A stretch of 64,000 nt of DNA from Clostridium sp. CAG:433 (GTDB taxonomy: Bacteria > Bacillota_I > Bacilli_A > RF39 > UBA660), in NCBI GenBank assembly GCA_000433675.1, contig FR893565.1, forward strand, positions 55 through 64,054, read 5' to 3'. Positions 8,072 through 62,330 of the stretch are shown piece after piece. Numbering within the stretch: the stretch's first letter is position 1; each line of letters opens with the position of its first letter. The notes under the pieces are model-generated. The model was not told the origin of the DNA. It made no database searches and saw only the letters and a program-made list of their open reading frames with translations. The translations under genes and the position numbers were made by a program.

Positions 8072-8097
8072 AAAAAGAGTTCAAATGAACTCTTTTT
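8072..8097 (-). terminator. Rho-independent terminator after the giant adhesin gene
   Basis: The hairpin AAAAAGAGTTCA-ttt-TGAACTCTTTTT is followed by a T-run and abuts the TAA stop. Confidence 0.65.
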
Positions 8098-42952: not shown

Positions 42953-43378
42953 TTATACTAGTAACTTTGTTTTTGTTTCATTTATCCAAAAATAATCTTT
43001 ACTTTTAAAATCAATCACAAATAAACATTCTCTTGAATCAACTATATCTCTTATAAATGTGTTAATATTTTTATTAGATTTTATTTTTAAAAAAGTATTA
43101 TTTATAGTAAGTCTACTTATTTCACTATCACTTTCTATAATATGAACATTATCTGTTTTAGTATAATATATATCATCTCTATGTTTAAGCATAACATAAT
43201 TATTAAATATTCTTTTATTAAATGGTATTGTAATTTGTTCAAATAATCTAAATTTATTAATTAAATCTTCATCATTAGATGAATAAATATCATAAAACAT
43301 TTTAAACAAAATATTTGCTTTATCGTTATAAAAAGTCTGAAACATATTATTAATTTTAAATATATAAAAAGTTCTCAT
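42953..43378 (-). CDS. Hypothetical cytoplasmic protein
   Basis: 141-aa ORF in the same orientation as its neighbours. No recognisable motif. Confidence 0.4.
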   Translation of the reverse strand: MRTFYIFKINNMFQTFYNDKANILFKMFYDIYSSNDEDLINKFRLFEQITIPFNKRIFNNYVMLKHRDDIYYTKTDNVHIIESDSEISRLTINNTFLKIKSNKNINTFIRDIVDSRECLFVIDFKSKDYFWINETKTKLLV

Positions 43379-43436
43379 ATAGTATCACCAAATATATTAT
43401 ATATTTTTATTTTTAAATAATTTGTCAAAAAAAGAA

Positions 43437-45422
43437 TTAAATAAGTGATTTAATTCTTTCTATTATTGAATCTAGATCTAATTTGTAATATTTAAGTATT
43501 TCTTCTTTTGATGCACTTTTTCCAAACTCACTTATCGTTAATAAATAATCTGTACTAGTTACAAATTTTTCCCAACCAAATGAACTTTCATATTCAAGTA
43601 CAAATATTTTAGCACCTGCTGGGAATAAACTATCTTTATAAGAATCAGTTTGTTCTAAGAATTTTTCCATACATGGCATGCTTATAATTCTAACTCCGAT
43701 TCCTTCAGCTTTAAATCTTTCTTTTATTGAGTTTGCGACTTGTACTTCTGCACCGGTTGCGATTATAACAATATCTACATTATCATCTGGATCAGCCTCA
43801 ATATATGCACCTTTTGATACTGATAACATATTTGTTCCACCTTGAACCTTTACTTCTGTTTTTGCAAGTGAAATAACAGCTGGTTTTCTCTCTTTTAGTA
43901 TACAGTTCCAAGCTCCAATTATTTCTACCATATCCGCAGGTCTATATACATATAAATTTGGTGTTGCTCTTAAAGATGCTAACTGTTCTATAGGTTGATG
44001 TGTTGGTCCATCTGCACCTACTGTAATTGAATCATGTGTAAATATATATGTTACAGGTAAATCCATTATAGCACTCATCCTAATTGATGGTTTCATATAA
44101 TCTGAAAATGCCATAAATGTTGATGCAAATGGTCTAAATCCTGATAAAGCAAGTCCATTACTTATTGCTCCACTTGCATTTTCTCTTACACCATACAATA
44201 TATTTCTTCCATTAAAATTATTATAAGCAATATCATTCTTACCATTTAAATATGTAAGTGTTGCACTTGCAACATCTGCTGCTCCACCAATAAAATTCCA
44301 CATAGAATCAGCAATTACATTCATAACTTTTGAATTACTTTCTCTTAAAGTTTCTTTTAAATCATAGTTAATACCAAAATCAACTTTTGTTAAATCTATT
44401 TCTGTATTATTATAAGCTAAATTTTGAAATTCATTATATTTATCAGCAGACATATCTTTTTTATATTCTTCAAGTGTTTTTTCCCATGTATCATATAAAT
44501 TTGATCCTCTTTGTATAACTTGATTTCTTAAATTTTCAGCTGGTTCTTTTAAAAGTGTAAATGGAAGTCCTTCAACCCCTAAACCTTTTTTTAACTGTTC
44601 ATAATCATCCTTTGTAAGTTCTCCAGAATGAATTTTAGGAGTACCTTCTAATTTAGACCCATCCCCAATTGTTGTATTTACAATTATTAAACTTGGATTA
44701 ATAATATTCTTTTTAGCTTTTTCAATAGATTTATTTATTTCAGATATTGATTTACCATTTTTTACTATTTGTACATGCCAACCTTGTGACATAAATCTTG
44801 ATGATATACTTTCTGTAAAGTTTTTATTAGTATTTGTATCCATTGATGATTTATTAGCATCATATAATACAATTAATTTGCCTAGTTTTAAGTTACCCGC
44901 AAATGATGCTGCTTCATAGGATATTCCTTCCATTAAGTCACCATCAGATGCTAAAACATAAGTATAATAATCTATTAGTTTTTTAGTTTTTTTATCAAAT
45001 GCGTTTTTTGGTTTTTTATTAAATCTTTCTTCTAAGATTTTTTCTCCAAGAGCCATACCTACAGCTGTTGCAAATCCTTCACCAAGCATTCCAGTACTTG
45101 CATCTACTCCAATAGTTCCAAATTCTGGATGAGATGGTGTTTTACTATTTAATCTTCTATAATTTTTTAAATCTTCTACTGTAAACTGATAACCGCTTAA
45201 AAATAAAGTTGCATAAAGAAGTGCTGAAGCATGTCCTGCACTTAAAACAAACCTATCTCTGTTTATCCAATCGTACATTGATGGATTAACTTTTATATGT
45301 TTTGCATATAAAGTATATAAAATTGGCGCAGCACTTAATGTTGAACCAGGATGTCCTCCTTTTGCATTTTGTATTATATCAAGTGCTAAACCTTTTAATA
45401 CTGCTAGTGATCTATTATCCAC
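43437..45422 (-). CDS. tkt: Transketolase
   Basis: 661 aa. The thiamine-diphosphate binding motif (GHPGSTLSAAPILYTLYAKH ... GDGDLMEGISYEA) and the C-terminal transketolase domain are present. It starts with GTG. A TATAAT box lies about 25 nt upstream. Confidence 0.95.
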   Translation of the reverse strand: MDNRSLAVLKGLALDIIQNAKGGHPGSTLSAAPILYTLYAKHIKVNPSMYDWINRDRFVLSAGHASALLYATLFLSGYQFTVEDLKNYRRLNSKTPSHPEFGTIGVDASTGMLGEGFATAVGMALGEKILEERFNKKPKNAFDKKTKKLIDYYTYVLASDGDLMEGISYEAASFAGNLKLGKLIVLYDANKSSMDTNTNKNFTESISSRFMSQGWHVQIVKNGKSISEINKSIEKAKKNIINPSLIIVNTTIGDGSKLEGTPKIHSGELTKDDYEQLKKGLGVEGLPFTLLKEPAENLRNQVIQRGSNLYDTWEKTLEEYKKDMSADKYNEFQNLAYNNTEIDLTKVDFGINYDLKETLRESNSKVMNVIADSMWNFIGGAADVASATLTYLNGKNDIAYNNFNGRNILYGVRENASGAISNGLALSGFRPFASTFMAFSDYMKPSIRMSAIMDLPVTYIFTHDSITVGADGPTHQPIEQLASLRATPNLYVYRPADMVEIIGAWNCILKERKPAVISLAKTEVKVQGGTNMLSVSKGAYIEADPDDNVDIVIIATGAEVQVANSIKERFKAEGIGVRIISMPCMEKFLEQTDSYKDSLFPAGAKIFVLEYESSFGWEKFVTSTDYLLTISEFGKSASKEEILKYYKLDLDSIIERIKSLI

Positions 45423-45458
45423 TTTTCTTCACCCAATCCCTTACTATAAAACATTATA

Positions 45459-45492
45459 ACAAAAAAAGTTACTATTTAAAAGTAACTTTTTA
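45459..45492. terminator. Bidirectional terminator at the end of essC
   Basis: AAAAAAAGTTACT-atttaaa-AGTAACTTTTT. The essC TAA stop lies in the T-run. Confidence 0.65.
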
Positions 45493-48400
45493 TATTTGTT
45501 CAATAAATTTGACATAAGTTGGGATTCCTCTTCTTATAACAAATCCAAAATTATATGGTACATCTTCTTTCATTTCAGGAACACGTTTACTTGTATTAAT
45601 TAAAATTTGTTCTCCAAGTCCATTTCCTAAATAAATACCATTACTTGAATTATAATTATCTTTAAACCAAGAATCATATGTAAATTTCTTTATCTTATCT
45701 AATGTATCTATTATTACAAAATTAATAACACCAAGATCTGCTAAATTTGCAAATAATGTATTCATTTCATTTTTTCTATCTGGACTAATCTTATTAATAA
45801 ATGATGATATACCAATTATTACACAGTTAACTTTATTTTTTCCATCAAATACATTTTTGTTTCCATTATTTGAATTATATAATTCCAACGAATCATTAAT
45901 ATATTTTTTAATAGCATCAAATACATTATTAAAATTTCCTTCAAAATAATTTGAATATGATTTGATTTTGTCATTTAAAGCGAAATTTTCTGCATTAATA
46001 ATTATATTTGTTAATGACTTTTTATTTATACATTGTTCAATAAATGGAGCACTAATTCCTTCAAGTAAAGTTATATCTTGTGATGTCATTATATTTACAA
46101 CATCTTTTGTAAAATCATATGTTGCAACTGATAAATCAAGCTTATTAATACCAAGTGCAAGTAAATTATTATTTTCTACTGCACTTCTGCAATCATCATA
46201 ACTTACTATTTCAGGAAGAATTGGTACTCTTCTAGCAATATAATTATACTTTTCTTTATTCTTATTGCAATAATCTTTTATATAATTTGGTATTTCAGAT
46301 TTTTCAGAGGCAAGCGCTGTTTGAAATTCATATATGTCATCTTCTTTGATAAGACCTCTACCAAATAATTTTGATGGATATGTCTTATGTACATTACCAA
46401 GTACAGTGCTATAATCGTCTTCACTATTAAGTTGAAGTGTAAATACTTGTCCAAAGTTTTGTTTTAACTTGAATCTTACACCATTAACTGTATTGACAGC
46501 AAGGACAAAGAAAATACCATATTTTGTACAATCTCTTGTTAATATATTAAGAATGTCCTCATGACTTTGGAAATTTTCAATATATGCTTCATAGTTATTT
46601 ATTATAATAACTAGATTTGGAATTATATTTCCACTATCTTTACAATAAGAAACATAATTACCATTATAATTTGAAAATAAACTTTTTCTTTCATCTATTT
46701 CAGTTTGAATCATCTTATATAAGTTTTCTATTTTTTCATCATCATTTGGATACATTATATCTCCCACATATGGAGAATTATTAAAACATCTTAAACTTTC
46801 TGATCCAAAATCAACAACATAATAGTTTACTTCATTTGGAGTATATGCAACCATTGATGAATAAATCATAGTTGTTATAAAGTTTTCTTTACCAGATCCA
46901 GCAGAACCATATATAATTGAATTACCTTTTTCTGTTAAATTAATAGTTAACAATCTTTGCTCTTGATTTGCTGGAACATCATACTCACCAACAACTGGAT
47001 TTAAAACATAATTCTTTTTAACATAATTATATTTTTTAATAAGATTATCAACAAATATACATTCTGGAATTTTACTAAGCCATAATGGTCTTGTAACTAT
47101 ATTCTCTTCTTTTGCTATATTTGATAAATATTTAACAATATTTATTAATTCTTCTCCATAATTTGCTGTAGACTTTTGTTCTACTCTAGTTTGAACAGTT
47201 CTAATTTTATAACCCATATTGTTTATAAAATCTATTGATGTATCTGATTGTCTTTTTAATGCATCTGTTGGAATATATTTTGTACCTGTATAAGCAGATT
47301 GTCCAAGTACAAATATTTCATTAAATCCAACTTGTAAATAAAATCTACCTGTTTGAGTTAAGAATGCTGCATCTGGTTGTTTTATAACCTCTGATGAATC
47401 ACTCTTATCCTGAACTCTTAAACATACTCTAAATCTTGTGTTACTCCATATCTGTGAATCAACAACACCACTTGGTTTTTGAGTTGCTAGTATTAAATGT
47501 ACTCCTAAACTACGTCCAATTCTCGCAGTACTTATTAATTGATCCATAAATTCTGGTTGTTGATTTTTAAGTTCAGCAAATTCATCTGCGATTATAAGTA
47601 AATGAGATACAGGTTCATCTACAACATGATTTCTATACATTTCTTGATATTTATAAATATCTACTGTACTTTCTTCTGATATTTCTCTTGCTTTATTAAA
47701 TAGTGCCTGTCTTCTTTTAAGTTCACTTTCTATTGACGCAAGTGATCTATTTATTTCATTTTTATCTAAGTTTGTAATTGTTCCAACTAAATGTGGTAAT
47801 TTTATTCCTAGATTTTGATTTTCAAATGCACCAGCAAGTCCACCACCTTTATAGTCTATTAATATAAACTGTACTTCATCAGGATGATAATTAACCGCAA
47901 GTGATAATATATATGTAATAATAAATTCTGATTTACCTGAACCTGTCATACCAGCAATAAGTCCATGTGGTCCATGATATTTTTCATGTAAATCTAGACT
48001 AATTTTTTCACCATTTTTTCCAACACCTACTGGCACTGACATACTAAGAATTGGAACATTATCAATCCATCTTTGCTTTGAATTAAATGACTCTATCTTA
48101 CCTATATTATACATTTCAAGAAAACCAAGTCTTTTAGGTATTATTCCTTCACCTTCATCTTTTATTTCTATTGGAATATTCGACAATGTTTTAAAACATT
48201 TAGGAAAGTTACAATCACTTAAATCTAAACTAAATTCTTGAACTAAACTATTTGATATATTTCTTGATATAGTTGATTTTTCTTTTGATACTTCAATAAA
48301 TGTTTGACATTGATCGGGTAAATTTGAAATTCTATCATTTAAAATAATTACACTAAACCCAACATAATTTTTATTGTTTATAATGTTATTTATTAAATCT

Positions 48401-50103
48401 ATATTTCTAACAGAATTAATTGAATCTATTATTAATACATATAATGAATCAAAATTTTCTATGCCTGACATGCTATTATTAAGCGCATCCATTCTTTTAT
48501 TATAAATTTTATCTAATTGATATGATACTTCCTTATATTCTTTTTCATTACTTGAAAAGTATCTTACTGATTTATCATTGCTCCATAAATGTGGTATTGA
48601 TCTTACTTCTTCATAATTATTTTTATTTTCTTCAGTTGTAAATATAACAAACTTTAAATCATCATAACTATGAAATGTTGAAAGTTGTAATAAAATATTT
48701 TTTATAATTCTATTTTGATAAATCTTATCTCCAATTATTGCGGATATATAATTTTCTCTAAATGAAAAAGGTATTGGAACATTTTCTAATAGTGTTTTAC
48801 TTGATTTTAATTCTTTTACTTTATCCAAAAGTACATCCTCTGTCATAGAAAAATGTTCTTCAGGATAAACAACATTTATATCAAGTGGAAGTTTACCACT
48901 TCCTAAGCTAACACTTAAAAAGTCATCATCTTCTATTCTTCTTTCCCAAAGTCTATCTTCTCTATTTAAAATTACTTTTTCACATTCGGATAAATTTAAA
49001 AATCTTTTATGCATTATATCTTGTTGATTTTGTTTTTCGTTTTCTATCTGTTTTTTTATTGAATCAATATATGCTGAATATTTCTTTTTTCTTTCTTTTT
49101 CTTTTTTCTTTTCTAATCTTTTTTGAAATCTATTTGTCAAAAGTGGCCACATTAAGAAACTTAACATCATCGCACCACTCATAACAAGTGATGGTATAGC
49201 ATTATTCATTGTTTGATTACCATTATTTACATTATTCATTGTTGTATAAAATGTCATAACAGATGTCATACTCATAGTAAGCATAGGTCCTATTGTTAAT
49301 ATTGCTGGCATTTCATTTTTATCTCCACCACCTGGAGGATTATCTACTCTTATTGAAATACTATTTATTGAGTATATAAATCTTGGTTTTCTATAAAAAT
49401 AATCCTCTTTTGAATAAAGTTCCATATCTTTTTCTTCTTGTGGTTCATCTATTCTATTTTGAGATAAATCTTGTTGCATCTCTACACTTTTCATAAATGT
49501 TTGAACATTGTTATAATTATTAGAAATACCTAAAACATAATTACCATCTTTTTTTAGGAGTAATAATTCTAGTCCAAGAATGAAAATTACATCACCTATT
49601 TCTATTTTTGTACCACTATTAACCTTTAATCCATTTATAAAAATATTTGTTTGATTATCATTATTTGTAATTATTATATTAGGACCCTCTTGTTTTATAG
49701 TAATAGCGTTAAATTGAATCGCATTAAAATTATAAGAAATTGTACAGTTACTATCTGAACCTATTGTAATACCCATAGGTAATTCAGTACTGCATGAATA
49801 AAAATGCATTTTTTCATATGTACTTGGCATAAATAAATATACTTTATCATACGAATATGCATAAGTTATCTCATAGTAAGAATTTTCTTTAGCAACAACA
49901 AAAGGAACTCTTTTAGAGTTCTCAACGATATAATAATCACTATTGCTTACTATTTTCCATTCACCATCTGAATTAGCCTCTAAATTAATGATATTTTTTT
50001 CTATTCCATTTTCATCAATCTCAGAAAGCCATATATTACCTGTTACTTTATTGGGCAACATATAAGTTAATAATTTATCATTTTTGGCTAAAACTACTTT
50101 CAT
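45490..50103 (-). CDS. essC: Type VII secretion system FtsK/SpoIIIE-family ATPase EssC (YukB-like)
   Basis: 1537 aa. Two N-terminal FHA-like domains. Two TM helices around residues 270-320. A strongly conserved D1 ATPase region ([23 protein letters not shown] ... DYKGGGLAG ... [22 protein letters not shown]). A degenerate D2 Walker A ([10 protein letters not shown]). D3 has no obvious Walker A. The stop codon sits inside a bidirectional hairpin/T-run terminator. Confidence 0.95.
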   Translation of the reverse strand: [1537 protein letters not shown]

Positions 50104-50125
50104 ATATCTTTTTCCCTTTCATTCT

Positions 50126-50380
50126 TTATATCAATATAAATTCAGTACCATTAACTATTCCAGAACCCTTAACATAAACATTAAGATCATAAACAATACA
50201 ACCATCTTTATCATATAAATTTAATTTATCAGTATCTACTAATGAATTATCTGATAATTCATTTATTACGTCAATACAATATTTTCTTATAGTTCCAACT
50301 TTTTTATTTATAGGTATAAATATATCATAACTTTTACTTAAAAGAGGAACATTTATTGTTATTAAAATCTTATTATTCAT
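50126..50380 (-). CDS. esaB: Ubiquitin-like T7SS protein EsaB/YukD
   Basis: 84-aa beta-grasp-sized protein immediately upstream of essC. The pattern 'ILITI...YD...P....VG.....I.......L.L.........L...GI.NG..L.L' resembles YukD. Confidence 0.7.
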   Translation of the reverse strand: MNNKILITINVPLLSKSYDIFIPINKKVGTIRKYCIDVINELSDNSLVDTDKLNLYDKDGCIVYDLNVYVKGSGIVNGTEFILI

Positions 50381-50405
50381 AAATTTCCTTTCATAGACTT
50401 AAATA

Positions 50406-51728
50406 CTAGTTTTTCTTTGACGTTGGATTTGCTAAACTTTTAAGCATATCAGAAGCCTCTGGCACATTACTCTTCATACCTAATTGTTCTTGTAAATATC
50501 CATCATATGGATTCTTTTTTACTCCAAGTAACTCTTGTGACGCCTTGTCAAAATCAAAGTTTTTTGCACTTGTATTAGTTCTTCTCATTGTATTTACAAC
50601 TCTTGGGTCTGGGAGATCTTTTTCAGGTGGATTTACTAAATTATTATAATCTTCAAGGAAAGAACCTGTAGGCTTTTTTGTAAGTGTATCGTTAGGTGTG
50701 GTAGTTGCATGATAATCACTTGTTGATCTTGAAGAGAAGCTTCTTGATGGACCAGCTGTTGTACTACCTCCACCATCACCTGAACCTGATGGACTAACAA
50801 GTGAATTAACAATAGATTGAATTGTAGCATAATTATATCCTGCAGCAGCTAAAGCTTTCTTTCTAGCATCGCCATTACCCCATTTTCCTGCTAACACTTC
50901 TTTTGCGATTGCCATATCAGTTTTAAATGTACCAGAAACACCTTTTTTAGCATATTCTGTTAAGTTTGGTCTTTTTATATTTAAGCTTTGATATGCAGTG
51001 CTTCCTGCATATTTTTTACTACTTGCAGATTTTAATGATAATGTTGTATTATCTGGTAATTGTTTTTCAAGTAGTAAAATATTACTTAAATAGTTTGTCC
51101 ACCAACTATCAATTGAATCTCTTTTTTTCATTACTCTTTGATATGCTGATAAAACTCTATACCATCCATAATATAAATAACTATCTTTTCCAACTGTACT
51201 TTTCATAGAATAAAAATTTTTATAACTATTATATAAAGCTGATCCATATGAATCAAAATTAGATTTTAGATTTTTTAGTTTTTGGTAATTTATTTTAAAA
51301 CTATTATCTAATTGTAATTGCGAAGTGCTATATATATTGTTTGATGAAAAAGTTGCAAGGCCTGATGAATCATTTTGTAAATTATCTATAAGATAAACCA
51401 TATTTTTTAGTTCTGAAGAAATTTTTTGGGCATATGCTGTTTTTGTAGAATAATCTGTCGTACTCTTCATTTTTAATTGTTGTTTTTGAATTAACTCCGC
51501 ATATTGTAAAACTTTTAAATATCCTTTAAGGAAAGTAATTAAGTGATCAAGTTGTTCATAATGTGTTTTAAGTGCACTAGACAATTTTCTAATGGCTGAT
51601 GAATCACATACACTTTCTACATTTCTAAAATTGTATGTTTTTAATTTTCTTACTTCCTTTATACAGTCATTACAAGTCATTAGCAAGTTAGATATTTTTA
51701 TATCTTTAAAATAATTTGTATAATTCAT
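50406..51728 (-). CDS. T7SS-associated soluble protein with an N-terminal helical domain, one Cpl-7-type (CW_7) cell-wall-binding repeat and a Gly/Ser/Thr/Pro-rich disordered C-terminus
   Basis: The motif MAIAKEVLAGKWGNGDARKKALAAAGYNYATIQSIVNSLV matches the Cpl-7 repeat consensus (..ViaGkWGNGeeRk.rL..aGYdY.aVQ..VNel). No TM helix is present. There is an L-K-G motif at about residue 67 in a predicted helical N-terminal region of about 200 aa. It is located between the WXG100 genes and esaB. Confidence 0.6.
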   Translation of the reverse strand: MNYTNYFKDIKISNLLMTCNDCIKEVRKLKTYNFRNVESVCDSSAIRKLSSALKTHYEQLDHLITFLKGYLKVLQYAELIQKQQLKMKSTTDYSTKTAYAQKISSELKNMVYLIDNLQNDSSGLATFSSNNIYSTSQLQLDNSFKINYQKLKNLKSNFDSYGSALYNSYKNFYSMKSTVGKDSYLYYGWYRVLSAYQRVMKKRDSIDSWWTNYLSNILLLEKQLPDNTTLSLKSASSKKYAGSTAYQSLNIKRPNLTEYAKKGVSGTFKTDMAIAKEVLAGKWGNGDARKKALAAAGYNYATIQSIVNSLVSPSGSGDGGGSTTAGPSRSFSSRSTSDYHATTTPNDTLTKKPTGSFLEDYNNLVNPPEKDLPDPRVVNTMRRTNTSAKNFDFDKASQELLGVKKNPYDGYLQEQLGMKSNVPEASDMLKSLANPTSKKN

Positions 51729-51744
51729 AATATTTTCCTACTTT

Positions 51745-52389
51745 CTACTTTATAAATTTTAATAATTCACTTAAGGATATCGCACCTGATGCAGTACTAT
51801 TACTATGTGATGCATTATCAACAATTTTGTCTGTTTGCTTAACGTTACTTCCAATACTATTTAAATCTTTTACCTTTTCATTTGTATTTGTAGTAGTTGT
51901 GTTAGTTTTTTGTGTCTTATCAGGTATCGGATAACTAGGATTAAGGTCTATTATTCCTGTTACAAGCGTATCAGTTGTTTTTAACTTTCCAATATAATTA
52001 GGTGTTTTTATGTTTATTTTTCCAATACCACTAACTATTTTTACATTTGATCCACCTGTTTTTGGAATCGAGATAGTTGGTGCTGAAAAACCTAGTTTTG
52101 CTATTTGCTCTGCATTTATTTCAGTATCTGTTGCTCTATTTTGTTCAACAATTTCTTTTATTGTTTCTAAATATAAAGGTAATGTTTTTTCTGTTACTTC
52201 TGGTATTTCCTTATATTTTTTACTAATTTCATTATAAAATTTATTTGCTGCTGTTCCTTTCCAAAAGCCACTTCTACTATTTGAGAATGAGTTAACTTTT
52301 TCAAATTGTTCATTAAGATCTCTAACAACTGCATTAATTCTATCACATATGTCAATGACAGCATCATATTTGATTGATGTATTATTCAC
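51745..52389 (-). CDS. WXG100-family protein with a roughly 110-aa Thr/Asn-rich C-terminal extension
   Basis: The N-terminal approximately 100 aa form a helical hairpin with a central W-x-G (SGFWKGTAANKFYNE), aligning with the three downstream small WXG100 proteins. The extension ends ...LSELLKFIK. Confidence 0.65.
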   Translation of the reverse strand: MNNTSIKYDAVIDICDRINAVVRDLNEQFEKVNSFSNSRSGFWKGTAANKFYNEISKKYKEIPEVTEKTLPLYLETIKEIVEQNRATDTEINAEQIAKLGFSAPTISIPKTGGSNVKIVSGIGKINIKTPNYIGKLKTTDTLVTGIIDLNPSYPIPDKTQKTNTTTTNTNEKVKDLNSIGSNVKQTDKIVDNASHSNSTASGAISLSELLKFIK

Positions 52390-52403
52390 TTTTATCTCAC
52401 TCC

Positions 52404-52703
52404 TTATATTTTTCTATTTAAAAAATGTGTTTCAAATTTTTGATATGCTTTTTTTACTTCTTTAATCGTGTTAGCATCATCTTCAACCTGATTTTGATAT
52501 GCTTGAAAAAATTTCACATAGTCTTCCATATTACTACAAAATTTTTCTGATGCTGCTCCCTTCCAATATGTGTTCAATTCACTTAAATATTGGCTTATTT
52601 TTGTATTATCACTTTTTATTGCTGCCGCACATTCGTTTATTTCTTCTGCTACCCTATCAAATTCAGCATATTCTACAATTAAATCTTCCATATTTTCCTC
52701 CAA
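52404..52703 (-). CDS. WXG100-family (EsxA-like) secreted protein
   Basis: 99 aa with a central W-x-G (LNTYWKGAASEKF). Helical-hairpin size and composition. Confidence 0.7.
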   Translation of the reverse strand: MEENMEDLIVEYAEFDRVAEEINECAAAIKSDNTKISQYLSELNTYWKGAASEKFCSNMEDYVKFFQAYQNQVEDDANTIKEVKKAYQKFETHFLNRKI

Positions 52704-52771
52704 ACCTTTCGTCAGTAAATACTAAAGTTTAATATTCACTGACCAAAGTCTCTATAGTATAGAGAACTTTA

Positions 52772-53056
52772 TTAACCCATAATTTGAGTATCTGTTTTTT
52801 TATAATTTTCAACAACTGATGTTAAATGAGCTGCTTCATCTGTTACAGCTTTATAAAAATCAGCAAATTTAGCACTAATTGTATTAAATTTTTGTTTTGA
52901 TTCCATTGCAGCATTACCAGCCCAAACATCTTCATTACCAATTTTAGATGATAATGTTGTTATTTCATCTAATATTGATTGCATTTCTCTTGCATAACTA
53001 TTTAAATTTGAGCTTACACTCATAATTTGAGAATATGTTAATGTTGATCCATTCAT
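52772..53056 (-). CDS. WXG100-family (EsxA-like) secreted protein
   Basis: 94 aa with a central W-x-G (EDVWAGNAAMESKQKF). Confidence 0.7.
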   Translation of the reverse strand: MNGSTLTYSQIMSVSSNLNSYAREMQSILDEITTLSSKIGNEDVWAGNAAMESKQKFNTISAKFADFYKAVTDEAAHLTSVVENYKKTDTQIMG

Positions 53057-53068
53057 ATTTTGTTCCTC

Positions 53069-53362
53069 CTATCTGATTCCGTCTTGGTTTGCTTCGTTAA
53101 CTTTTTGGTATGCATTTGCTGCACTTATTAGAAACTCACCCATTTCGCAAATTGTTTTATTTAAGACTTTCATATTTTCTATTTCAGCAGCTACTGCACT
53201 TGTATATTTTTCTGCATCGCTACCTTTCCAAGAATTTCTAAGATTTTCATTTTCACTAGTTATTTTATTTAAAACTTCTGAAAAATCATTACCTTTTTCT
53301 AGAATACTATTACCGATTTGTCTTGTTTGATTATAATCAATACTTAAATCCACAACCTTCAC
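53069..53362 (-). CDS. WXG100-family (EsxA-like) secreted protein
   Basis: 97 aa with a central W-x-G (LRNSWKGSDAEKY). GTG start, with GGAGG immediately upstream. A TTGACA-18-TATTAT promoter lies about 30 nt upstream. Confidence 0.7.
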   Translation of the reverse strand: MKVVDLSIDYNQTRQIGNSILEKGNDFSEVLNKITSENENLRNSWKGSDAEKYTSAVAAEIENMKVLNKTICEMGEFLISAANAYQKVNEANQDGIR

Positions 53363-53386
53363 CTCCCTCCGCTATTTTATACAAAT

Positions 53387-53416
53387 ATAATACCACTTAT
53401 ATTTACATCATGTCAA
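53387..53416 (-). promoter_or_regulatory. Internal SigA-type promoter (TTGACA-18-TATTAT) ahead of the first WXG100 gene
   Basis: Seen on the minus strand in the 84-nt gap between the GT2 pair and the WXG100 genes. A second TTGACA lies 34 nt further upstream. Confidence 0.5.
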
Positions 53417-53446
53417 TTATTACACAACTTTTTTATCCATATTGTG

Positions 53447-54379
53447 TCAATCATTATATATTTTTTTTGATAAATTAAAAAATAGATATTCAACCATATT
53501 TAATACATCATTATCACCTATATTTCCAAAAATAATATCATTTTTATCAGAGACTTTTAATTCAATACCATATTCATTAATTTTTTTATATAATTTGTTA
53601 AAGCTATCTTTCAGTTTTACAACATCACTTTTTGTTTTAAAGTATTTTACATATACATTTGAAAAATGAATTAATTCATTATATAGCTCATAAATTATTT
53701 TATATTCATCGAAGCCCCTTTTATCTGCTTCTTCTGCCATCCATAGCATATTTTCACATAATATAGGAACCTCATTATAACAATAATCTTCTATATTATT
53801 GGTTATACTTCCTTCTGTACATGAATAAAGTAATACATCGCTATTAATATATGAATATTTGTCTGTACCTATTTTCAAAAGTCTATTAAAACAATTATCC
53901 TCGCCATTTCTGCTATCATTAAATTGAAACTTATTTTCATCAATATATTTTCTTTTATATAATTTGCCATGTAATTGAAAACTAAAATCATTCGAAATAG
54001 TTAGTATGGTATTATCATAATTTTCATAATAAACATTACCGCAAATAATATCATTATTCTTAATATTTTTTAAAAGTGTTTCTAACGAATAAATATCAAT
54101 AAACATATCATCTGCATCTAAAAAATAAATATATTCACCATTTGAATGGTCTAAACCGTATTGTCTAGCAACTCCTGGTCCACTATTTTTATCAAGTTTA
54201 TATTCTATTATGTTAATTCTGTCTTTAAATTTATTTATAATATCTTTATAATCATGATCTGAACAATCATCAATTATATATACATTAATTTTGTCATTAA
54301 CCGTTTGCATACATATACTCAATAATGCTTTAGAAATTGTTTTATGTGCATTATATGCTGGAATAATTATATCTATCAT
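53447..54379 (-). CDS. Family 2 glycosyltransferase (GT-A fold)
   Basis: The N-terminus IDIIIPAYNAHKTI, together with the IIDDCSD and FLDADDMF (DxD) motifs, places it in GT2. It is paralogous to the upstream gene. Its start ATG directly abuts the upstream stop (TAAATG). Confidence 0.85.
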   Translation of the reverse strand: MIDIIIPAYNAHKTISKALLSICMQTVNDKINVYIIDDCSDHDYKDIINKFKDRINIIEYKLDKNSGPGVARQYGLDHSNGEYIYFLDADDMFIDIYSLETLLKNIKNNDIICGNVYYENYDNTILTISNDFSFQLHGKLYKRKYIDENKFQFNDSRNGEDNCFNRLLKIGTDKYSYINSDVLLYSCTEGSITNNIEDYCYNEVPILCENMLWMAEEADKRGFDEYKIIYELYNELIHFSNVYVKYFKTKSDVVKLKDSFNKLYKKINEYGIELKVSDKNDIIFGNIGDNDVLNMVEYLFFNLSKKIYND

Positions 54380-55324
54380 TTAATCATCCTCCAATCCTAT
54401 TTCTATTAAAAAATTATCGAATGTAACTAATGGATTAAGTACATTTTCAGTATATCCCTCTGTTACTGCACATTTCATTTTATATTGTAATATGTTATAT
54501 CTATCTATATCCGATATTTCAAGAATATAATCATCATAAATTTCTTTGATTTTTTTTATATTCTTTATTAATTCTTTATTTTTATTTAAAAAATCAAATC
54601 CATAATAAATAGTTAAAAGTGATTCATATGATAAGGATGCTAAATTTTCTTCTGAACATTTTCCTTTTACTCCACACTCTAATGCATAAAGCATTGATTT
54701 AGAATAATTGTATATAGAATTTTCTCTATAATTTTCCTTTCTAGTTAATGAGTTTTCATTATTCATCCATATATATGTTTTTTCATTAACAATATTCATC
54801 TTAGGATTATATAATAAAACTAAATGATTAAATGCGTTATCTTCTTCTGCATAGTAATTTGGAAATCTAATATTATTATCCTCTAGAAATTTTCTTCTGT
54901 AAATTTTACCATGAAGCGCTACTGTATCATTAACAAAAGTATTAAATTTATGCTCTCTAGTTTCTTCTAAAAAAGTACTAAAAACAACATCTAAAGACTC
55001 TTGTTCTATCTTTTTATACAATGTAATTATGGATAGTGGTGTTGCAAAAATATCATCTGAATCTATAAAAACAACATATTCACTGTTTGATTGATCTAAT
55101 CCATATTGTCTCGCATAACCAGGTCCTTTATTTTCATTTAATTTTAGTTCTTTTATGTTAATAAAATCTTTAAAAAAATCTATTTCTTTACTATAATCCT
55201 TTATAGAATTATCATTTATAATATATACATTTAAATCTTCTGAATTTCTTTGATACGCTATAGAATATAATGTTCTTTCAATCGTTTCATGAGCATTATA
55301 TGCCGGAATAATTACATCTATCAT
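54380..55324 (-). CDS. Family 2 glycosyltransferase (GT-A fold)
   Basis: IDVIIPAYNAHETI, IINDNSIKD and FIDSDDIF (DxD) motifs. AGGAG sits 8 nt upstream of the ATG. It is the first long gene of the minus-strand operon that is divergent from lexA. Confidence 0.85.
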   Translation of the reverse strand: MIDVIIPAYNAHETIERTLYSIAYQRNSEDLNVYIINDNSIKDYSKEIDFFKDFINIKELKLNENKGPGYARQYGLDQSNSEYVVFIDSDDIFATPLSIITLYKKIEQESLDVVFSTFLEETREHKFNTFVNDTVALHGKIYRRKFLEDNNIRFPNYYAEEDNAFNHLVLLYNPKMNIVNEKTYIWMNNENSLTRKENYRENSIYNYSKSMLYALECGVKGKCSEENLASLSYESLLTIYYGFDFLNKNKELIKNIKKIKEIYDDYILEISDIDRYNILQYKMKCAVTEGYTENVLNPLVTFDNFLIEIGLEDD

Positions 55325-55381
55325 ATTTTACATCTCCTAGTATTTTAATATTAACACAAAAGAAAATAAAAAAAAACAAGG

Positions 55382-55513
55382 ATTTGAGTTTTTATGAATA
55401 TATTTCCTCATAAGTTTCCTGTTTTGATAAATTATTATCTATATTACTTGCTCTTTCCATCATAAGTAAGAATCCTAAAACTCCTACAACAATAACTACT
55501 AAATAACCAAAAT
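55382..55513 (-). CDS. Putative 43-aa single-TM peptide (MKKYFGYLVVIVVGVLGFLLMMERASNIDNNLSKQETYEEIYS), divergent from lexA. Candidate SOS-induced cell-division inhibitor (SosA/YneA-like position).
   Basis: This ORF is below the track's size cut-off and was found by translating the minus strand. It has a weak SD (GAAGGG). It starts about 40 nt from two LexA operators. Coordinates are accurate to within about 10 nt because of my manual indexing in this region. Confidence 0.35.
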
Positions 55514-55554
55514 ACTTTTTCATACTAACCCTTCTTTCTGATTAAATTCTATCA

Positions 55555-55596
55555 CGAACAAACATTCGTGTCAATAATGCTTCGAACAATTGTTTG
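55555..55596 (+). promoter_or_regulatory. Two Cheo-box-like LexA operators (CGAACAAACATTCG and CGAACAATTGTTTG). The second overlaps the lexA -35 box.
   Basis: The Firmicutes LexA consensus is CGAACRNRYGTTCG; each site matches at 12-13 of 14 positions. They are spaced 14 nt apart, between the divergent lexA gene and the small-peptide/GT2-T7SS operon. Confidence 0.7.
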
Positions 55597-55622
55597 ACAT
55601 TTTACACTTTGTATGTTAAAAT
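55594..55622 (+). promoter_or_regulatory. SigA-type lexA promoter, TTGACA-17-TAAAAT
   Basis: A perfect -35 hexamer, a 17-nt spacer and an A/T-rich -10 lie about 25 nt upstream of the lexA start. Confidence 0.6.
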
Positions 55623-55646
55623 GAAATTGTTATAAGGAGAGATATA

Positions 55647-56258
55647 ATGGAAAAGTTAACAAGTAAGCAAAATAATGTATTAGATTATTTAAAACAATTC
55701 CTTGCTAAAAAAGGATATCCACCTACTGTGAGAGAAATATGTGCCGCACTTAATTTATCTTCACCAGCAACTGTTCATGCACATTTAAATACATTAGAAG
55801 AAAAGGGATATATTTCAAAAGGTAATTCAAAAAATAGAGCTATTGAATTACTTGTAAAAAATGAATATGAAGAAGCAGATAGCGTGGATATTCCACTTTT
55901 AGGTAAGGTTGCTGCTGGTAATCCTATTGAAGCAATTGAAATGCCTGATGAATATTTTACTGTACCATCTTACTTAATCCCTGCAAAAAGAGAAGTATTT
56001 GCTCTTAGAGTAAACGGTGAATCAATGATTAATGCTGGTATTCATGATAATGATATAGTTATAATTCAAAGACAACAAACTGCGAACAATGGTGATATGG
56101 TAGTTGCTATGACTGATGATTATGGTGTTACATTAAAAACATTTTATAAAGAAAATGGATATTTCCGTCTTCAACCAGAAAATGATACAATGGCTCCAAT
56201 AATATTAGATAGTGTTACAATAGTTGGAAAAGCAATTGGATTATATAGAAAAATATAA
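55647..56258 (+). CDS. lexA: SOS transcriptional repressor LexA
   Basis: N-terminal winged HTH. The Ala-Gly autocleavage site (KVAAGNPIEA) and the S24 peptidase Ser/Lys dyad (NGESM ... TLKTF) are present. AAGGAG is the SD. Confidence 0.95.
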   Translation: MEKLTSKQNNVLDYLKQFLAKKGYPPTVREICAALNLSSPATVHAHLNTLEEKGYISKGNSKNRAIELLVKNEYEEADSVDIPLLGKVAAGNPIEAIEMPDEYFTVPSYLIPAKREVFALRVNGESMINAGIHDNDIVIIQRQQTANNGDMVVAMTDDYGVTLKTFYKENGYFRLQPENDTMAPIILDSVTIVGKAIGLYRKI

Positions 56259-56327
56259 AAAAGGAATTTCTATAAAATTCCTTTAATCTATATAAACGCT
56301 TGCTAAAGAAGCAGTAGCGTATAATAA

Positions 56328-56360
56328 TTACAGGTTATTTATTAACCTGTTTTTATTTTC
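56328..56360 (+). terminator. Rho-independent terminator downstream of lexA
   Basis: ACAGGTTA-tttat-TAACCTGT is followed by TTTTTATTTT. A weaker hairpin (AAGGAATTT-ctataa-AAATTCCTT) lies directly after the lexA stop at 56259-56288. Confidence 0.5.
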
Positions 56361-56441
56361 CAACACTAATAATATATTATTCAAATTAATTTATATTATT
56401 CATTAATAATATATTTTTGTTTTTAAATTTTGTATAGACTT

Positions 56442-57323
56442 TTATACTAATTCATACTCTCTTGCTATTATTCTGTCATCACTACAATATTCAATCACAT
56501 ATTTATTTTCTTTCTTGCATATTATTATTCCTATTGTTTTATTTTGATTTATACTTTTTAGATTTTTATCTATATAATTCATATAAAATTCTATTTGTCC
56601 TATATGTTCTTTTCTTAATTCAGTTACTTTTAGTTCAACAACTACAAAGCAATTAAATTCATAATTAAATAATAATAAATCAATATAATTATATCTATCT
56701 CCTATTTTTATTTTATATTCATTATCTATAAAACTAAATTCGTTGCCTAATTCTTTTAAAAATAATGATATATCTTCTAATATCAGTTTTTGAAATATTT
56801 TTTCTGATATTTCATTGTAACCACTTGTATTTCTTATTTGAATTGGATTCTTTACTAAATCTGGTACTTTTAATTCTTCTTTAGTTTTTAATTTTTTCTT
56901 TGTTTCTTCATCTAATCTTTCATATTCATTATTTTTTATTCTTTCTCTTAATTCTCTTACTGATAAGTTTTGTTCTTCTGTTATTTTTATATAATAATTT
57001 ATTTTATCTATGTCAAACCAAATAAGTTCACAATAATGGGAATAACTTAATTTGTCCGACACTGTCGGATGTTTTATTAAAACTTCATAAAATCTTCTAA
57101 AATATCTTAATCTTGTTGGTGTATAACCTTTACCGAACTCATTTGTAAGTCTTTTAGAATATTTTTTTATTATTCCTTCTCCATAATGTTTACCAGCTTC
57201 AGCTAATAATTTTCCAACATTATAATATGTAGTTAAATCACTTTTATTTTTACTATAATCTTTTACCTTTTTAGTAATTTCATTATTTACTAATTCTGTT
57301 TTTATTTCATCATAATAATTCAA
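56442..57323 (-). CDS. DUF1016/YhcG-family PD-(D/E)XK nuclease-like protein
   Basis: 293 aa. The N-terminal DUF1016_N-like helical region and the C-terminal PDDEXK signature (D...VVVELKVTELRKEHIGQ) are present. It starts at TTG, with AAGGAGG 7 nt upstream. Confidence 0.7.
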   Translation of the reverse strand: MNYYDEIKTELVNNEITKKVKDYSKNKSDLTTYYNVGKLLAEAGKHYGEGIIKKYSKRLTNEFGKGYTPTRLRYFRRFYEVLIKHPTVSDKLSYSHYCELIWFDIDKINYYIKITEEQNLSVRELRERIKNNEYERLDEETKKKLKTKEELKVPDLVKNPIQIRNTSGYNEISEKIFQKLILEDISLFLKELGNEFSFIDNEYKIKIGDRYNYIDLLLFNYEFNCFVVVELKVTELRKEHIGQIEFYMNYIDKNLKSINQNKTIGIIICKKENKYVIEYCSDDRIIAREYELV

Positions 57324-57335
57324 ATTTAATCCTCC

Positions 57336-58235
57336 TTATGTTAATTCATATTCTCTTGCTATTATTCTATCATCAGAGCAATATTTAATTACATATTCAT
57401 TGTCATGCTTACAAATAATGATTCCTACTGTATCATTTTCTTCAATAGTTTTTATATTTTTATCAATATAATTCATATAAGTCATAATCTGACCAGTATG
57501 TTCCTTCTTAAGTTCAGTTACTTTTAATTCTACAACTACATAACACTTGTATTTAATATTATAAAGTAGTAAATCAATATAATTATATCTATCATCTAAT
57601 TTGATCTTATATTCGTTATCAATAAAAGTGAATCCATTACCTAATTCTTTTAAAAATGTTGGAATGTCCTCAAGTATTAACTTTTGCAGTATTTTTTCAG
57701 ATATAATTTCTTTTTTATTACTATTTCTAATATGAATAGGATTTTTAACAAAGTCTATTATTCATATATCATCCCTACTTTTCAATTTATTTCTTGCATC
57801 AGCGGGTATTCTTTCGTACTCATTAGATTTTATTTTATTTCTTAATTGTCTAACATCTAAATTATAGACTTCACATTGATTGACATAATATTCTATTTTA
57901 TTTATATCATCAAATGATAACATTTCATACCAATGACTCCATGTTAACTTTCCCGACAATGTCGGGACTTTTTCAATTATATTATAAAATTGTTTAATTT
58001 TATATAATAATGATGACGTATATTTTTTACCAAATTTATTTGTTAATCTTTTAGAATAGTCCTTTATTACATTTTTTCCATACTTAGTATCTACATTTTT
58101 AAGTAGTTCTCCAACTTCTAAATATGTTTTTATTTTTTCCTTTGCTTTTGAATAATCTTTTACGTTTTGATATATTTCATGATTTAATATCTTGTTTTCT
58201 ATTTGTTGATATGTTTTATCTATTTCTTCTATCAT
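57336..58235 (-). pseudogene. Tandem duplicate of the DUF1016/YhcG gene, interrupted by a single in-frame TGA at 57762-57764
   Basis: The 157-aa ORF 57762..58235 aligns with the N-terminal half of the intact copy. The downstream 141 codons (57336..57761) remain in the same frame and translate to the PDDEXK half (VVVELKVTELKKEHTGQ ...AREYELT*). TGA is a genuine stop in this genome, since gyrA ends in TGA. Confidence 0.6.
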
Positions 58236-60868: not shown

Positions 60869-62014
60869 CTATTTTAGAACTTTTTTTTGTAAAAAATTGT
60901 AATTTTCTATTGAAACTCTCTGTACAAGAGCAAGTCCTATTGCTAGAGTAAGTGCAAATGAACCACCATAACTTAAAAATGGAAGTGGTACACCTGTTAA
61001 AGGAACAAGGCCTAAAACACCAGTTAAATTTACAACTACATGAAGTAAAATATAACTCGCGACTCCATAACAAATAGTCCTGTTTACTATATTATATGAC
61101 CTAAGTCCAATCATAAATATTCTAATAATTATTATCATGTAAATAAGTATAACAACAATTCCTGTAATAAGTCCCATATCTTCTACTACTATTGGAAATA
61201 TAAAGTCAGTATATGCTTCTGGTAAATATAAATATTTTTGTTTACTATTTCCAGGTTCTATACTAAATAATTTACCATTGTTTATAGCAATATAACCATT
61301 ACATACTTGATATCCTGTATCTTCTTGATATCTAGTACATGGTTTTTTATAATTAAATCTAGATTTCTGCATTCCTGTTAATGCGCTTCCACCTGTTACT
61401 AAAAGAATAAGTAAAATAATAACTACAACTACGAGTCCTGCAAAAGTTGTTTTAACTTTTATTTCTTTACTTACATTTGATGAATAAAATAATATAGCGG
61501 ATATAAAGAATAATATAAGTCCTGTACCACCATCAGGTTGTAATAGTGTTAAAATTGTAAATATTGCGCCTAATACAAGTGGTGTTAATGCTACTACAGG
61601 ATTATCTAGTCTTTTTTGATTCATTTGATAGTATACACCAGTAAATAAAATAAGTGCTACTTTAGCAAATTCACTCGGTTGAAGACCAAACGGTCCAATA
61701 TAAATCCAGCTTTTAACACCCGCAGATGTTTCTGTTCCTGCAACAAGTAAAAATATAAGCATTAGTATTAATACTCCCGCAATCAAGAATATTAATTTAT
61801 TATATTTTTTTAATGGTTTTCTAATTATTATAATTGCCATTACAAGTGCTGAAACTAAAAATATTAATTGTCTAAAAAAATATTTCGTATTTTCTCCTGT
61901 ATTTAAAAATGATTTCATGCTTGATGCATCAAGTATCATAAATAAACCAAAGATAAACATAAATATTGATAAAATTAATAATGGTTTGTCCATTTTATTA
62001 AATGCCCTTATCAT
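60869..62014 (-). CDS. SEDS-family peptidoglycan glycosyltransferase (FtsW/RodA/SpoVE)
   Basis: 10-TM protein carrying the conserved SEDS motifs (QPSEFAK ... GLVPLTGVPLPFLSYGGS). Confidence 0.9.
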   Translation of the reverse strand: MIRAFNKMDKPLLILSIFMFIFGLFMILDASSMKSFLNTGENTKYFFRQLIFLVSALVMAIIIIRKPLKKYNKLIFLIAGVLILMLIFLLVAGTETSAGVKSWIYIGPFGLQPSEFAKVALILFTGVYYQMNQKRLDNPVVALTPLVLGAIFTILTLLQPDGGTGLILFFISAILFYSSNVSKEIKVKTTFAGLVVVVIILLILLVTGGSALTGMQKSRFNYKKPCTRYQEDTGYQVCNGYIAINNGKLFSIEPGNSKQKYLYLPEAYTDFIFPIVVEDMGLITGIVVILIYMIIIIRIFMIGLRSYNIVNRTICYGVASYILLHVVVNLTGVLGLVPLTGVPLPFLSYGGSFALTLAIGLALVQRVSIENYNFLQKKVLK

Positions 62015-62138: not shown

Positions 62139-62330
62139 ATGTATTATTACGGATACAGTGGTGGTTATGGATATAATAATCCTTGCTGTGGCGGTAATCA
62201 AGGTGGTTATGTTTATCCAGTAAATACTGGTTATGGATATAATAATGGCTCAGGTGCCGCTATTATATTAGTATTATTTATATTACTTGTAATAGTTATA
62301 GGAGCAGGATTCTTTAATAGAAATAACTAA
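62139..62330 (+). CDS. YjcZ-like small Gly/Tyr-rich sporulation-family protein
   Basis: 63 aa. An N-terminal (G/Y/N)-rich region with a CC pair is followed by a C-terminal TM helix (AAIILVLFILLVIVIGAGFF). AAAGGAGG sits 8 nt upstream. Confidence 0.55.
   Translation: MYYYGYSGGYGYNNPCCGGNQGGYVYPVNTGYGYNNGSGAAIILVLFILLVIVIGAGFFNRNN

Follow-up and report, generated by a model that had tools for sequence, protein, structure and literature searches.

In Gram-positive bacteria, the characterised SOS division inhibitors YneA, SosA, ChiZ and DivS are mutually dissimilar proteins with a single transmembrane (TM) helix that are encoded beside lexA, and the characterised genes in this lexA-adjacent position all encode division inhibitors (PMC6851548). 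In the case of YneA, the TM helix binds FtsW at TM7 and the LysM domain is required for activity, and AlphaFold 3 (AF3) models put SosA, ChiZ and the 29-residue SidA on FtsW too (PMC13396833). SosA is without LysM and shows its strongest conservation just outside the membrane (PMC6851548). The SOS box of B. subtilis and S. aureus is CGAACN4GTTCG (PMC9578287). We examined the lexA region of a 64,000-nucleotide (64-kb) stretch of Clostridium sp. CAG:433 (contig FR893565.1), referred to below as the window, in which a 43-codon open reading frame (ORF) for a small membrane peptide is divergent from lexA. By comparison with related genomes, this predicted lexA/small-peptide SOS unit is real, conserved in about 70 species and previously unannotated. 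Sequence and analogy together suggest that the peptide may be an SOS-induced inhibitor of late cell division, a reading to which, with its regulatory part included, we assign a probability of roughly 0.55.

LexA operators were sought as CGAACN4GTTCG with at most one mismatch over the whole window, with 100 shuffles as control. Box 1 (CGAACAAACATTCG, 55555..55568) and box 2 (CGAACAATTGTTTG, 55583..55596), neither assigned to a strand, each agree at 9 of the 10 specified positions and are the sole sites in the 64 kb with one mismatch or fewer (0.04 expected); no shuffle reached two such sites. A LexA weight matrix for the lineage, built from 70 orthologous sites, scored them at 18.2 bits (box 1) and 22.2 bits (box 2), and the next best site in the window at 8.8. 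An earlier reading of the window from its letters alone (the sequence-only reading) had placed two LexA boxes upstream of lexA and had noted that the second overlaps the TTGACA of the lexA promoter, and both statements stand. Its figure of 12-13 matches in 14 positions holds only if the central N4 is counted as free, and each box agrees with CGAACATATGTTCG at 11 of 14; the ORF exists, its ATG being 32 nucleotides (nt) from box 1, not about 40.

The intergenic region between the small ORF and lexA is 123 bp long and holds two back-to-back promoters of the sigma-A type, both recognised as consensus matches. The lexA promoter (55594..55622, plus strand) consists of a -35 TTGACA (55594-99), a 17-nt spacer and a TG-extended -10 TAAAAT (55617-22). 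The small-ORF promoter (55546..55574, minus strand), which the sequence-only reading missed, consists of a -35 TTGACA (55574 to 55569), a 17-nt spacer and a TG-extended -10 TAGAAT (55551 to 55546); it is equal in quality to the lexA promoter, each having 11 of 12 consensus positions and the TG. Box 1 occupies 14 of the 17 spacer nt of the small-ORF promoter and is flush with both its -35 and its TG, and box 2 shares 3 nt with the lexA -35 (TTGACA-17-TG-TAAAAT). Judged from this geometry, LexA on box 1 should directly block the small-ORF promoter and LexA on box 2 the lexA promoter, the second block amounting to autoregulation. The small-ORF transcript is predicted to start near 55539, with a leader of about 16 nt that includes the ribosome-binding site (RBS) AGAAGGG (55529..55535, minus strand, read from the sequence) ahead of the ATG at 55523; relatives have a purine-rich motif of the GGAG/AGGA type ahead of their small ORFs.

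The comparison covered 80 species-representative loci whose LexA is 64-100% identical to that of the window, and an intergenic alignment of 70 distinct regions from related uncultured gut Bacilli. The two-box, two-promoter layout recurs in 70 of these 70 regions. All 70 have TTGAC[AT]-N16-18-TANNNT with the TG upstream of lexA, and all 70 have the divergent promoter as TTGACN-17-TANNNT, its spacer being 17 nt in 69 of them; a LexA half-site abuts the divergent -35 in 67. In most of the 80 loci the Cheo-type boxes are located at about -92 and -64 from the lexA ATG. Two composite elements are nearly invariant among the 70 regions, namely GTTCG-TGTCAA, which joins the right half of box 1 to the divergent -35, and GTTTGACA, which joins the right half of box 2 to the lexA -35; the right half of box 2, GTTTG, is itself invariant (70/70). 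At the 70 orthologous box-1 sites, C1 was found in 67, A4 in 69, T11 in 70, T12 in 69 and G14 in 68, and among close strains the central N4 differs (AAAC, AAAT, AGGT) with the half-sites unchanged, the pattern expected of an operator. The regulatory part taken alone, a LexA-controlled divergent lexA/small-peptide unit, is very probably correct.

The lexA gene (55647..56258, plus strand) encodes 203 residues with a winged-helix DNA-binding domain (LexA_DNA_bind, PF01726) and an S24 self-cleaving domain (Peptidase_S24, PF00717), and its product scored 223.7 bits against the TIGR00498 equivalog (cut-off 111). The VAAG cleavage site, the GESM serine and the TLKTF lysine align with Ala84-Gly85, Ser119 and Lys156 of E. 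coli LexA, and by this alignment the window LexA is intact, with its predicted self-cleavage residues. A LexA protein identical to it is present on many human-gut metagenome contigs, and the metagenome-assembled genomes that carry it are labelled uncultured Tenericutes, Bacilli or Mycoplasmatota; the lineage is probably of the RF39 type, and a literature search on it and LexA found nothing relevant. A bidirectional terminator hairpin identified by terminator scan and folding is located 3' of lexA (56330..56350, both strands), with an 8-bp stem, a T run on both strands and a folding energy of -13 kcal/mol.

The small ORF (55392..55523, minus strand) begins with an ATG behind its RBS and encodes MKKYFGYLVVIVVGVLGFLLMMERASNIDNNLSKQETYEEIYS, a 43-residue peptide that runs from a basic N-terminus through a single TM helix to an acidic tail of 22 residues. 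The sequence-only reading had described a divergent 43-codon ORF for a single-pass membrane peptide; such an ORF is indeed present, with an RBS and a promoter of its own, and it is conserved. Small ORFs in the related loci were scored when they had an ATG with an RBS, started 60-260 nt from lexA on the opposite strand, were 30-75 codons long and contained a 17-residue window with mean hydropathy above 2; 780 dinucleotide shuffles of the same regions and 152 control flanks were scored alongside. A qualifying ORF was found in 68 of the 78 testable loci, as against 3 of the 780 shuffles (0.4%) and 1 of the 152 control flanks (0.7%). All of three family members picked from the peptide side, not by way of lexA, are divergent from lexA, and the 43-residue product has already been predicted by gene callers in metagenome assemblies.

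The peptides of the relatives are 38-58 residues long (median 48), and in 69 of 70 the N-terminus is more positive than the C-terminus, a bias that predicts an N-in/C-out topology. Protein-level conservation extends to the TM helix and the membrane-proximal motif: a Tyr in the helix recurs, as does a juxtamembrane motif of the type R-x-E/D-x-L/I/V-D/E/N (46/70), which in the window peptide reads E-R-A-S-N-I-D-N-N-L. The ratio of nonsynonymous to synonymous change (pN/pS) of the small ORF was 0.23 against the sister genome L009 and 0.53 over a 17-species subgroup; by segment, it was 0.1-0.5 for codons 1-32 and near 1 for codons 33-43. Selection on the small ORF is purifying, and it is not strong. 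AlphaFold 2 (AF2) folds the window peptide into a single helix spanning residues 2-42, with confidence limited to the TM and juxtamembrane part, and the model adds nothing further.

The small ORF also occupies a recognisable chromosomal slot. In three sister genomes (L009, L010, L011) it is followed directly by tkt and then by a SirA-like gene; in L093 the order is lexA<>ORF-tkt-sirA-UPF0154, and in L089 it is lexA<>ORF-sirA-UPF0154-dnaG-sigA. We take the B. subtilis order to be lexA<>yneA-yneB-ynzC, tkt, sirA (yneE), yneF (UPF0154). The gene order shared with the B. subtilis yne locus places the small ORF in the yneA slot and implies that the order predates the split of the lineages. In the window, tkt (transketolase; 43437-45422, minus strand; TIGR00232, 685 bits), its promoter with an extended -10 read from the sequence (TGTTATAAT, 45453-45461, minus strand), and the sirA-like gene (42953-43378, minus strand; PF10747 SirA) make up the ancestral downstream neighbourhood of the small ORF (42953..45460, minus strand). 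The presence of a SirA-like gene (PF10747, sporulation inhibitor of replication) after tkt in a reduced-genome gut lineage, as in B. subtilis, is an observation in its own right; in several relatives such a gene lies directly 3' of the small ORF, and a Spo0A_C-domain response regulator was seen in locus L096.

Among 63 relatives with enough flank, the first gene downstream of the small ORF was polA at 32 loci (usually then fpg), tkt at 14, sirA at 7, OGG at 1 and some other gene at 9. The gap to that gene is usually 18-70 nt, and a recognisable terminator follows the small ORF in 3 of 69 relatives; such gaps without a terminator imply that the small ORF is often the promoter-proximal gene of a longer SOS-controlled unit. 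The notion that it is normally monocistronic was dropped on this terminator count and on the lack of a canonical terminator after it in the window. One locus (L091) in which the small ORF faces a convergent gene is monocistronic, so that the ORF is more than the leader of a gene behind it. In four loci (L019, L026, L027, L054) the small membrane ORF is replaced by a soluble-looking protein of 278-282 residues (MSKAILSY...LLxGSLR..DN...), likewise divergent from lexA, which may be an alternative SOS gene in the same slot.

In the reading that we favour, LexA on box 1 would exclude RNA polymerase from the small-ORF promoter and LexA on box 2 would repress lexA, and upon DNA damage both promoters would be freed as LexA, stimulated by RecA, cleaves itself. 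Transcription from the divergent promoter would then yield an mRNA with a short leader, which encodes a bitopic membrane peptide of 43 residues whose N-terminus lies inside the cell and whose acidic tail of 22 residues lies outside. This peptide would brake late cell division through its TM helix and membrane-proximal segment, its target being the septal peptidoglycan synthase (an FtsW-type SEDS protein and partners). LexA binding, damage induction and the division target are all predicted steps in this scheme; an FtsW/RodA-family gene within the window (60869-62014) indicates that the lineage has the presumed target.

YneA (B. subtilis, Listeria; NF010723) resembles the window peptide in being divergent from lexA behind Cheo-type boxes, in its single N-terminal TM helix with N-in/C-out topology (here predicted from the charge bias), and in its chromosomal slot upstream of tkt-sirA(yneE)-yneF; it differs in having about 105 residues and a LysM domain, whereas the window peptide has 43 residues and no LysM, and the window locus is without the yneB and ynzC partners. 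SosA of staphylococci is also divergent from lexA and LexA-controlled, with a single TM helix and no LysM, and it too has a conserved membrane-proximal external segment and a variable extreme C-terminus (PMC6851548). The nearest in size is SidA of Caulobacter crescentus, a membrane peptide of 29 residues, induced by the SOS response, whose contact with FtsW blocks late division (PMC13396833, PMC9578287), from which it follows that a peptide of this size class can do the job of a division inhibitor without an extra domain. SidA is unlike the window peptide in being alphaproteobacterial, in its LexA box GTTCN7GTTC, in not lying beside lexA and in its unrelated sequence.

Several results weigh against division inhibition. 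Pfam found no LysM in the window peptide, and the 22-residue tail is too short for one. The tail of the window peptide is also short when set beside the 77-residue SosA, in which the essential external part is about 45 residues, and over codons 33-43 it evolves almost neutrally. The YneA model NF010723 matched 2 of 44 family members at E = 0.044, which is not significant, and did not match the window peptide. An exhaustive HMMER pass over 1.84 billion representatives yielded nothing like the 77-residue SosA or the 105-residue LysM protein. Finally, from the gene orders given above, the small ORF is often the first gene of a repair or housekeeping operon (polA-fpg, tkt).

Pfam and NCBIfam scans gave no match for the window peptide and nothing significant for 44 relatives at E values up to 10, and no SosA model was among the matches of the family. 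A profile search of a 5.8-billion-protein set returned 112 clusters (90% identity), all of them "hypothetical" or unnamed and none with a Pfam domain. The HMMER pass returned 135 members of 33-84 residues, all of the peptide's own family, and the few long matches were start-codon extensions or stop-codon read-through. Identity as a YneA or SosA homologue was dropped because the profile search returned only this family of 33-84 residues. By the tests applied, which included no direct SosA sequence comparison, the predicted family is unnamed and is not a YneA or SosA homologue. The likeness to SosA and YneA that had been drawn from the sequence is therefore kept for the position and for the divergent, LexA-controlled, single-TM layout, but not for homology or LysM. 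Since neither YneA/SosA homology nor LysM was found, division inhibition is a function that we infer for the peptide.

Three other accounts of the peptide were weighed. It could be a LexA-controlled small membrane protein with some other SOS-linked job: it might, for instance, act on a membrane protease, on a transporter or on the machinery of competence, or serve as an upstream ORF that couples translation to the polA or tkt gene behind it. This account, which we regard as unlikely, would fit the varied downstream partners (polA-fpg 32, tkt 14, sirA 7, OGG 1), the absence of a terminator after the ORF at most loci, the fast evolution of the tail and the lack of homology to any characterised inhibitor. 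Conservation of the TM helix and the membrane-proximal motif at the protein level argues the other way, as do the monocistronic ORF of L091 and the uniform function of the characterised genes in this Gram-positive position, all of them division inhibitors (PMC6851548); translational coupling in particular is hard to reconcile with gaps of 18-70 nt before a next gene that has its own RBS.

The main rival holds that the peptide is an SOS membrane toxin of the TisB/DinQ type, which would depolarise or perturb the membrane and bring on dormancy. E. coli TisB and DinQ are LexA-repressed, single-TM peptides of fewer than 60 residues (PMC3567139), and a short peptide with one hydrophobic helix, a charged tail and a LexA-controlled promoter fits that description; sequence alone cannot separate the toxin class from the division-inhibitor class. 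TisB and DinQ, however, need antisense RNAs and long processed 5' untranslated regions (UTRs), neither of which is evident at the window locus. The predicted 5' UTR of about 16 nt leaves no room for an antisense partner, the lexA transcript starts about 90 nt away on the opposite strand without overlap, and in most relatives the next gene is 18-70 nt off on the same strand. An Rfam scan of 54900-56500 found no RNA family, and no candidate for an antitoxin RNA was seen at the locus, though one encoded in trans may exist. Co-transcription with polA-fpg or tkt and the fixed yneA slot point more to a checkpoint gene than to a toxin or addiction module, and we consider a toxin distinctly improbable. 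Least credible of all, and very unlikely, is that the ORF is incidental, its 43 codons being an untranslated leader behind a promoter that serves the downstream genes (polA, tkt, here the GT2 and type VII secretion genes), since, even though AT-rich DNA readily gives hydrophobic ORFs and most relatives have close downstream genes without terminators, a qualifying ORF persists in 68 of 78 loci against 3 of 780 shuffles despite saturated nucleotide divergence, its pN/pS is below 1, and its charge asymmetry and motif are conserved.

We examined also if genes of the type VII secretion system (T7SS) downstream of the small ORF could be under SOS control, as the sequence-only reading had proposed. 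An island of about 9.9 kb (45490..55389, minus strand; delimited by comparison with L009, L010 and L011) starts 2 nt past the small-ORF stop and carries two GT2 genes (GT2a and GT2b), three WXG100 genes, a 214-residue gene, a CW_7-repeat protein, an 84-residue gene and an EssC-like FtsK/SpoIIIE gene (1537 residues). By blastn against L009, the match to window position 45500 runs directly into the match to 55390, and this junction together with the direct ORF-tkt adjacency in L010 and L011 indicates that 45490-55389 is an insertion. The hairpin AAAAAGTTACT-TTTAAAT-AGTAACTTTTTTT directly past the essC stop (45461..45491, minus strand; folding -10.4 kcal/mol) is homologous to the hairpin and T run 3' of the small ORF in L009; with this displaced ancestral terminator now past essC, the island is enclosed in the old small-ORF transcription unit. 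The island is absent from beside lexA in 72 other species, and L095, of a sister lineage, has it at the same junction. A general linkage of GT2-T7SS genes to lexA was dropped, as it was found only in L095 besides the window, with 0 of 72 among the other species. By these comparisons, the linkage of the T7SS to the SOS unit is apparently a lineage-specific accident of insertion.

The gap of 67 nt between the small-ORF stop and the GT2a start (55325..55391, minus strand) contains, in order, a weak interrupted stem, a U9 tract, TGTTAATAT and the GT2a RBS, and it is conserved in L095. Terminator and promoter scans found neither a canonical terminator nor a strong promoter in it, in keeping with the earlier statement that no terminator intervenes before the GT2 genes; the stem ahead of the U9 tract folds at -2.4 to -4.7 kcal/mol, as against -10 to -13 kcal/mol for nearby true terminators, and TGTTAATAT may be an extended -10 for GT2a. 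Farther downstream, within the 84-nt gap after GT2b and before the first WXG100 gene, a promoter-like site TTGACA-18-TG-TATTAT (53387..53416, minus strand; 11 of 12 consensus positions and the TG) suggests that transcription of the secretion genes starts separately, beyond both GT2 genes. The weight matrix found no LexA box within the island (best site 5.8 bits, intragenic). Without a LexA box, and with a strong internal promoter, only read-through could link the island to the SOS response.

Induction of at least the GT2 genes by such read-through from the LexA-controlled promoter upon DNA damage is a tentative proposal, more doubtful than probable. The placement of the island between the small-ORF stop (2 nt) and the old terminator, the lack of a canonical terminator or strong promoter in the 67-nt gap, the co-directional and tightly packed island genes (gaps 0-84 nt) and the retention of the same junction in L095 at about 8% core divergence would all permit it. 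There is also a precedent, in that ciprofloxacin and mitomycin C raise T7SS expression in E. faecalis, whether through LexA or by another route (PMC7790229). Against read-through stand the absence of a LexA box from the island, the 11/12 promoter-like site ahead of the WXG100 genes, the U9 tract, which even behind a weak stem could terminate some transcripts, the possible use of TGTTAATAT as an extended -10 for GT2a, and the lack of linkage between the T7SS and lexA across the 72 other species. That the T7SS as a whole is under coordinated SOS control is less likely still. The proposal of SOS control of the GT2-T7SS operon was thus not sustained beyond possible read-through, given a lineage-specific insertion with no LexA box and with an internal promoter.

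The island itself varies among its carriers. L095 (7803-16942) and the window (46301-55523) share the same island and junction, with core genes at about 92% nucleotide identity, and the 5' half of the L095 island is far more diverged than either the flanks or essC (the region about 81% at the nucleotide level, essC about 90%); GT2a is 68% identical in protein sequence, and the middle genes encode 206 and 401 residues in L095 and 214 and 440 in the window. From this pattern the locus looks like a variable-cassette T7SS locus. In L006, of the same species, a deletion of about 3.4 kb (window 51251-54614 against L006 4968-4985) joins the N-terminal part of the first GT2 to the CW_7-repeat protein, with loss of the second GT2 gene, the three WXG100 genes and the 214-residue gene; a 512-residue fusion ORF is called there. 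Between the second and third WXG100 genes, a gap of 68 nt (52704-52771, minus strand) holds a long, stable hairpin (about -30 kcal/mol for the gap with its flanks) with no U tract after it; within the esx cluster this hairpin may serve in processing or stabilisation, or as an attenuator. The GT2 pair is found elsewhere beside an FtsK/SpoIIIE-family gene in L096, and in L097 without T7SS genes nearby.

On the other side of lexA, tandem DUF1016/YhcG (PDDEXK-type) paralogues adjoin it on the minus strand (56442-58235). The first is intact (56442-57323, 293 residues); the second is present in the window as two separate fragments, of 49 and 157 residues (57336-57485, 57762-58235), and is an intact 299-residue gene in strains L002, L005, L007 and L008. 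Elsewhere in the window, a 4783-residue ORF (8096-22447, minus strand) with at least 8 Listeria-Bacteroides repeat domains is adjoined by an 868-residue BspA-type leucine-rich-repeat protein (5408-8014, minus strand) with a prepilin-type N-terminal methylation motif. A 63-residue Gly/Tyr-rich ORF (62139-62330, plus strand) with a C-terminal hydrophobic segment (MYYYGYSGGYGYNN...ILVLFILLVIVIGAGFF) is called in metagenome assemblies.

The island would, on the boldest reading, have been inserted precisely into the 3' UTR of an SOS checkpoint gene, and if read-through occurs, DNA damage would induce a 43-residue division brake and interbacterial T7SS weaponry on one transcript. We think this improbable; were it true, Gram-positives would have their own equivalent of SOS-induced colicin release, with the link made by insertion and not by a separate operator. 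In either case the window records how a T7SS island came in nature to lie within an SOS transcription unit, and it supplies for this lineage a model of LexA operators and promoters that is cleanly defined by phylogenetic footprinting. Just a few cultured Gram-positives are known to have small SOS-induced membrane proteins that stall division, and these proteins are mutually non-homologous; the locus extends this known pattern and does not overturn current understanding, adding an unannotated family from a large, uncultured, genome-reduced gut lineage. If the peptide is a division inhibitor, it would be, at 43-58 residues and without LysM, among the smallest Gram-positive examples, and a peptide this small would be a convenient probe of how a bare TM helix with a short juxtamembrane segment is able to inhibit a SEDS-type cell-wall polymerase.

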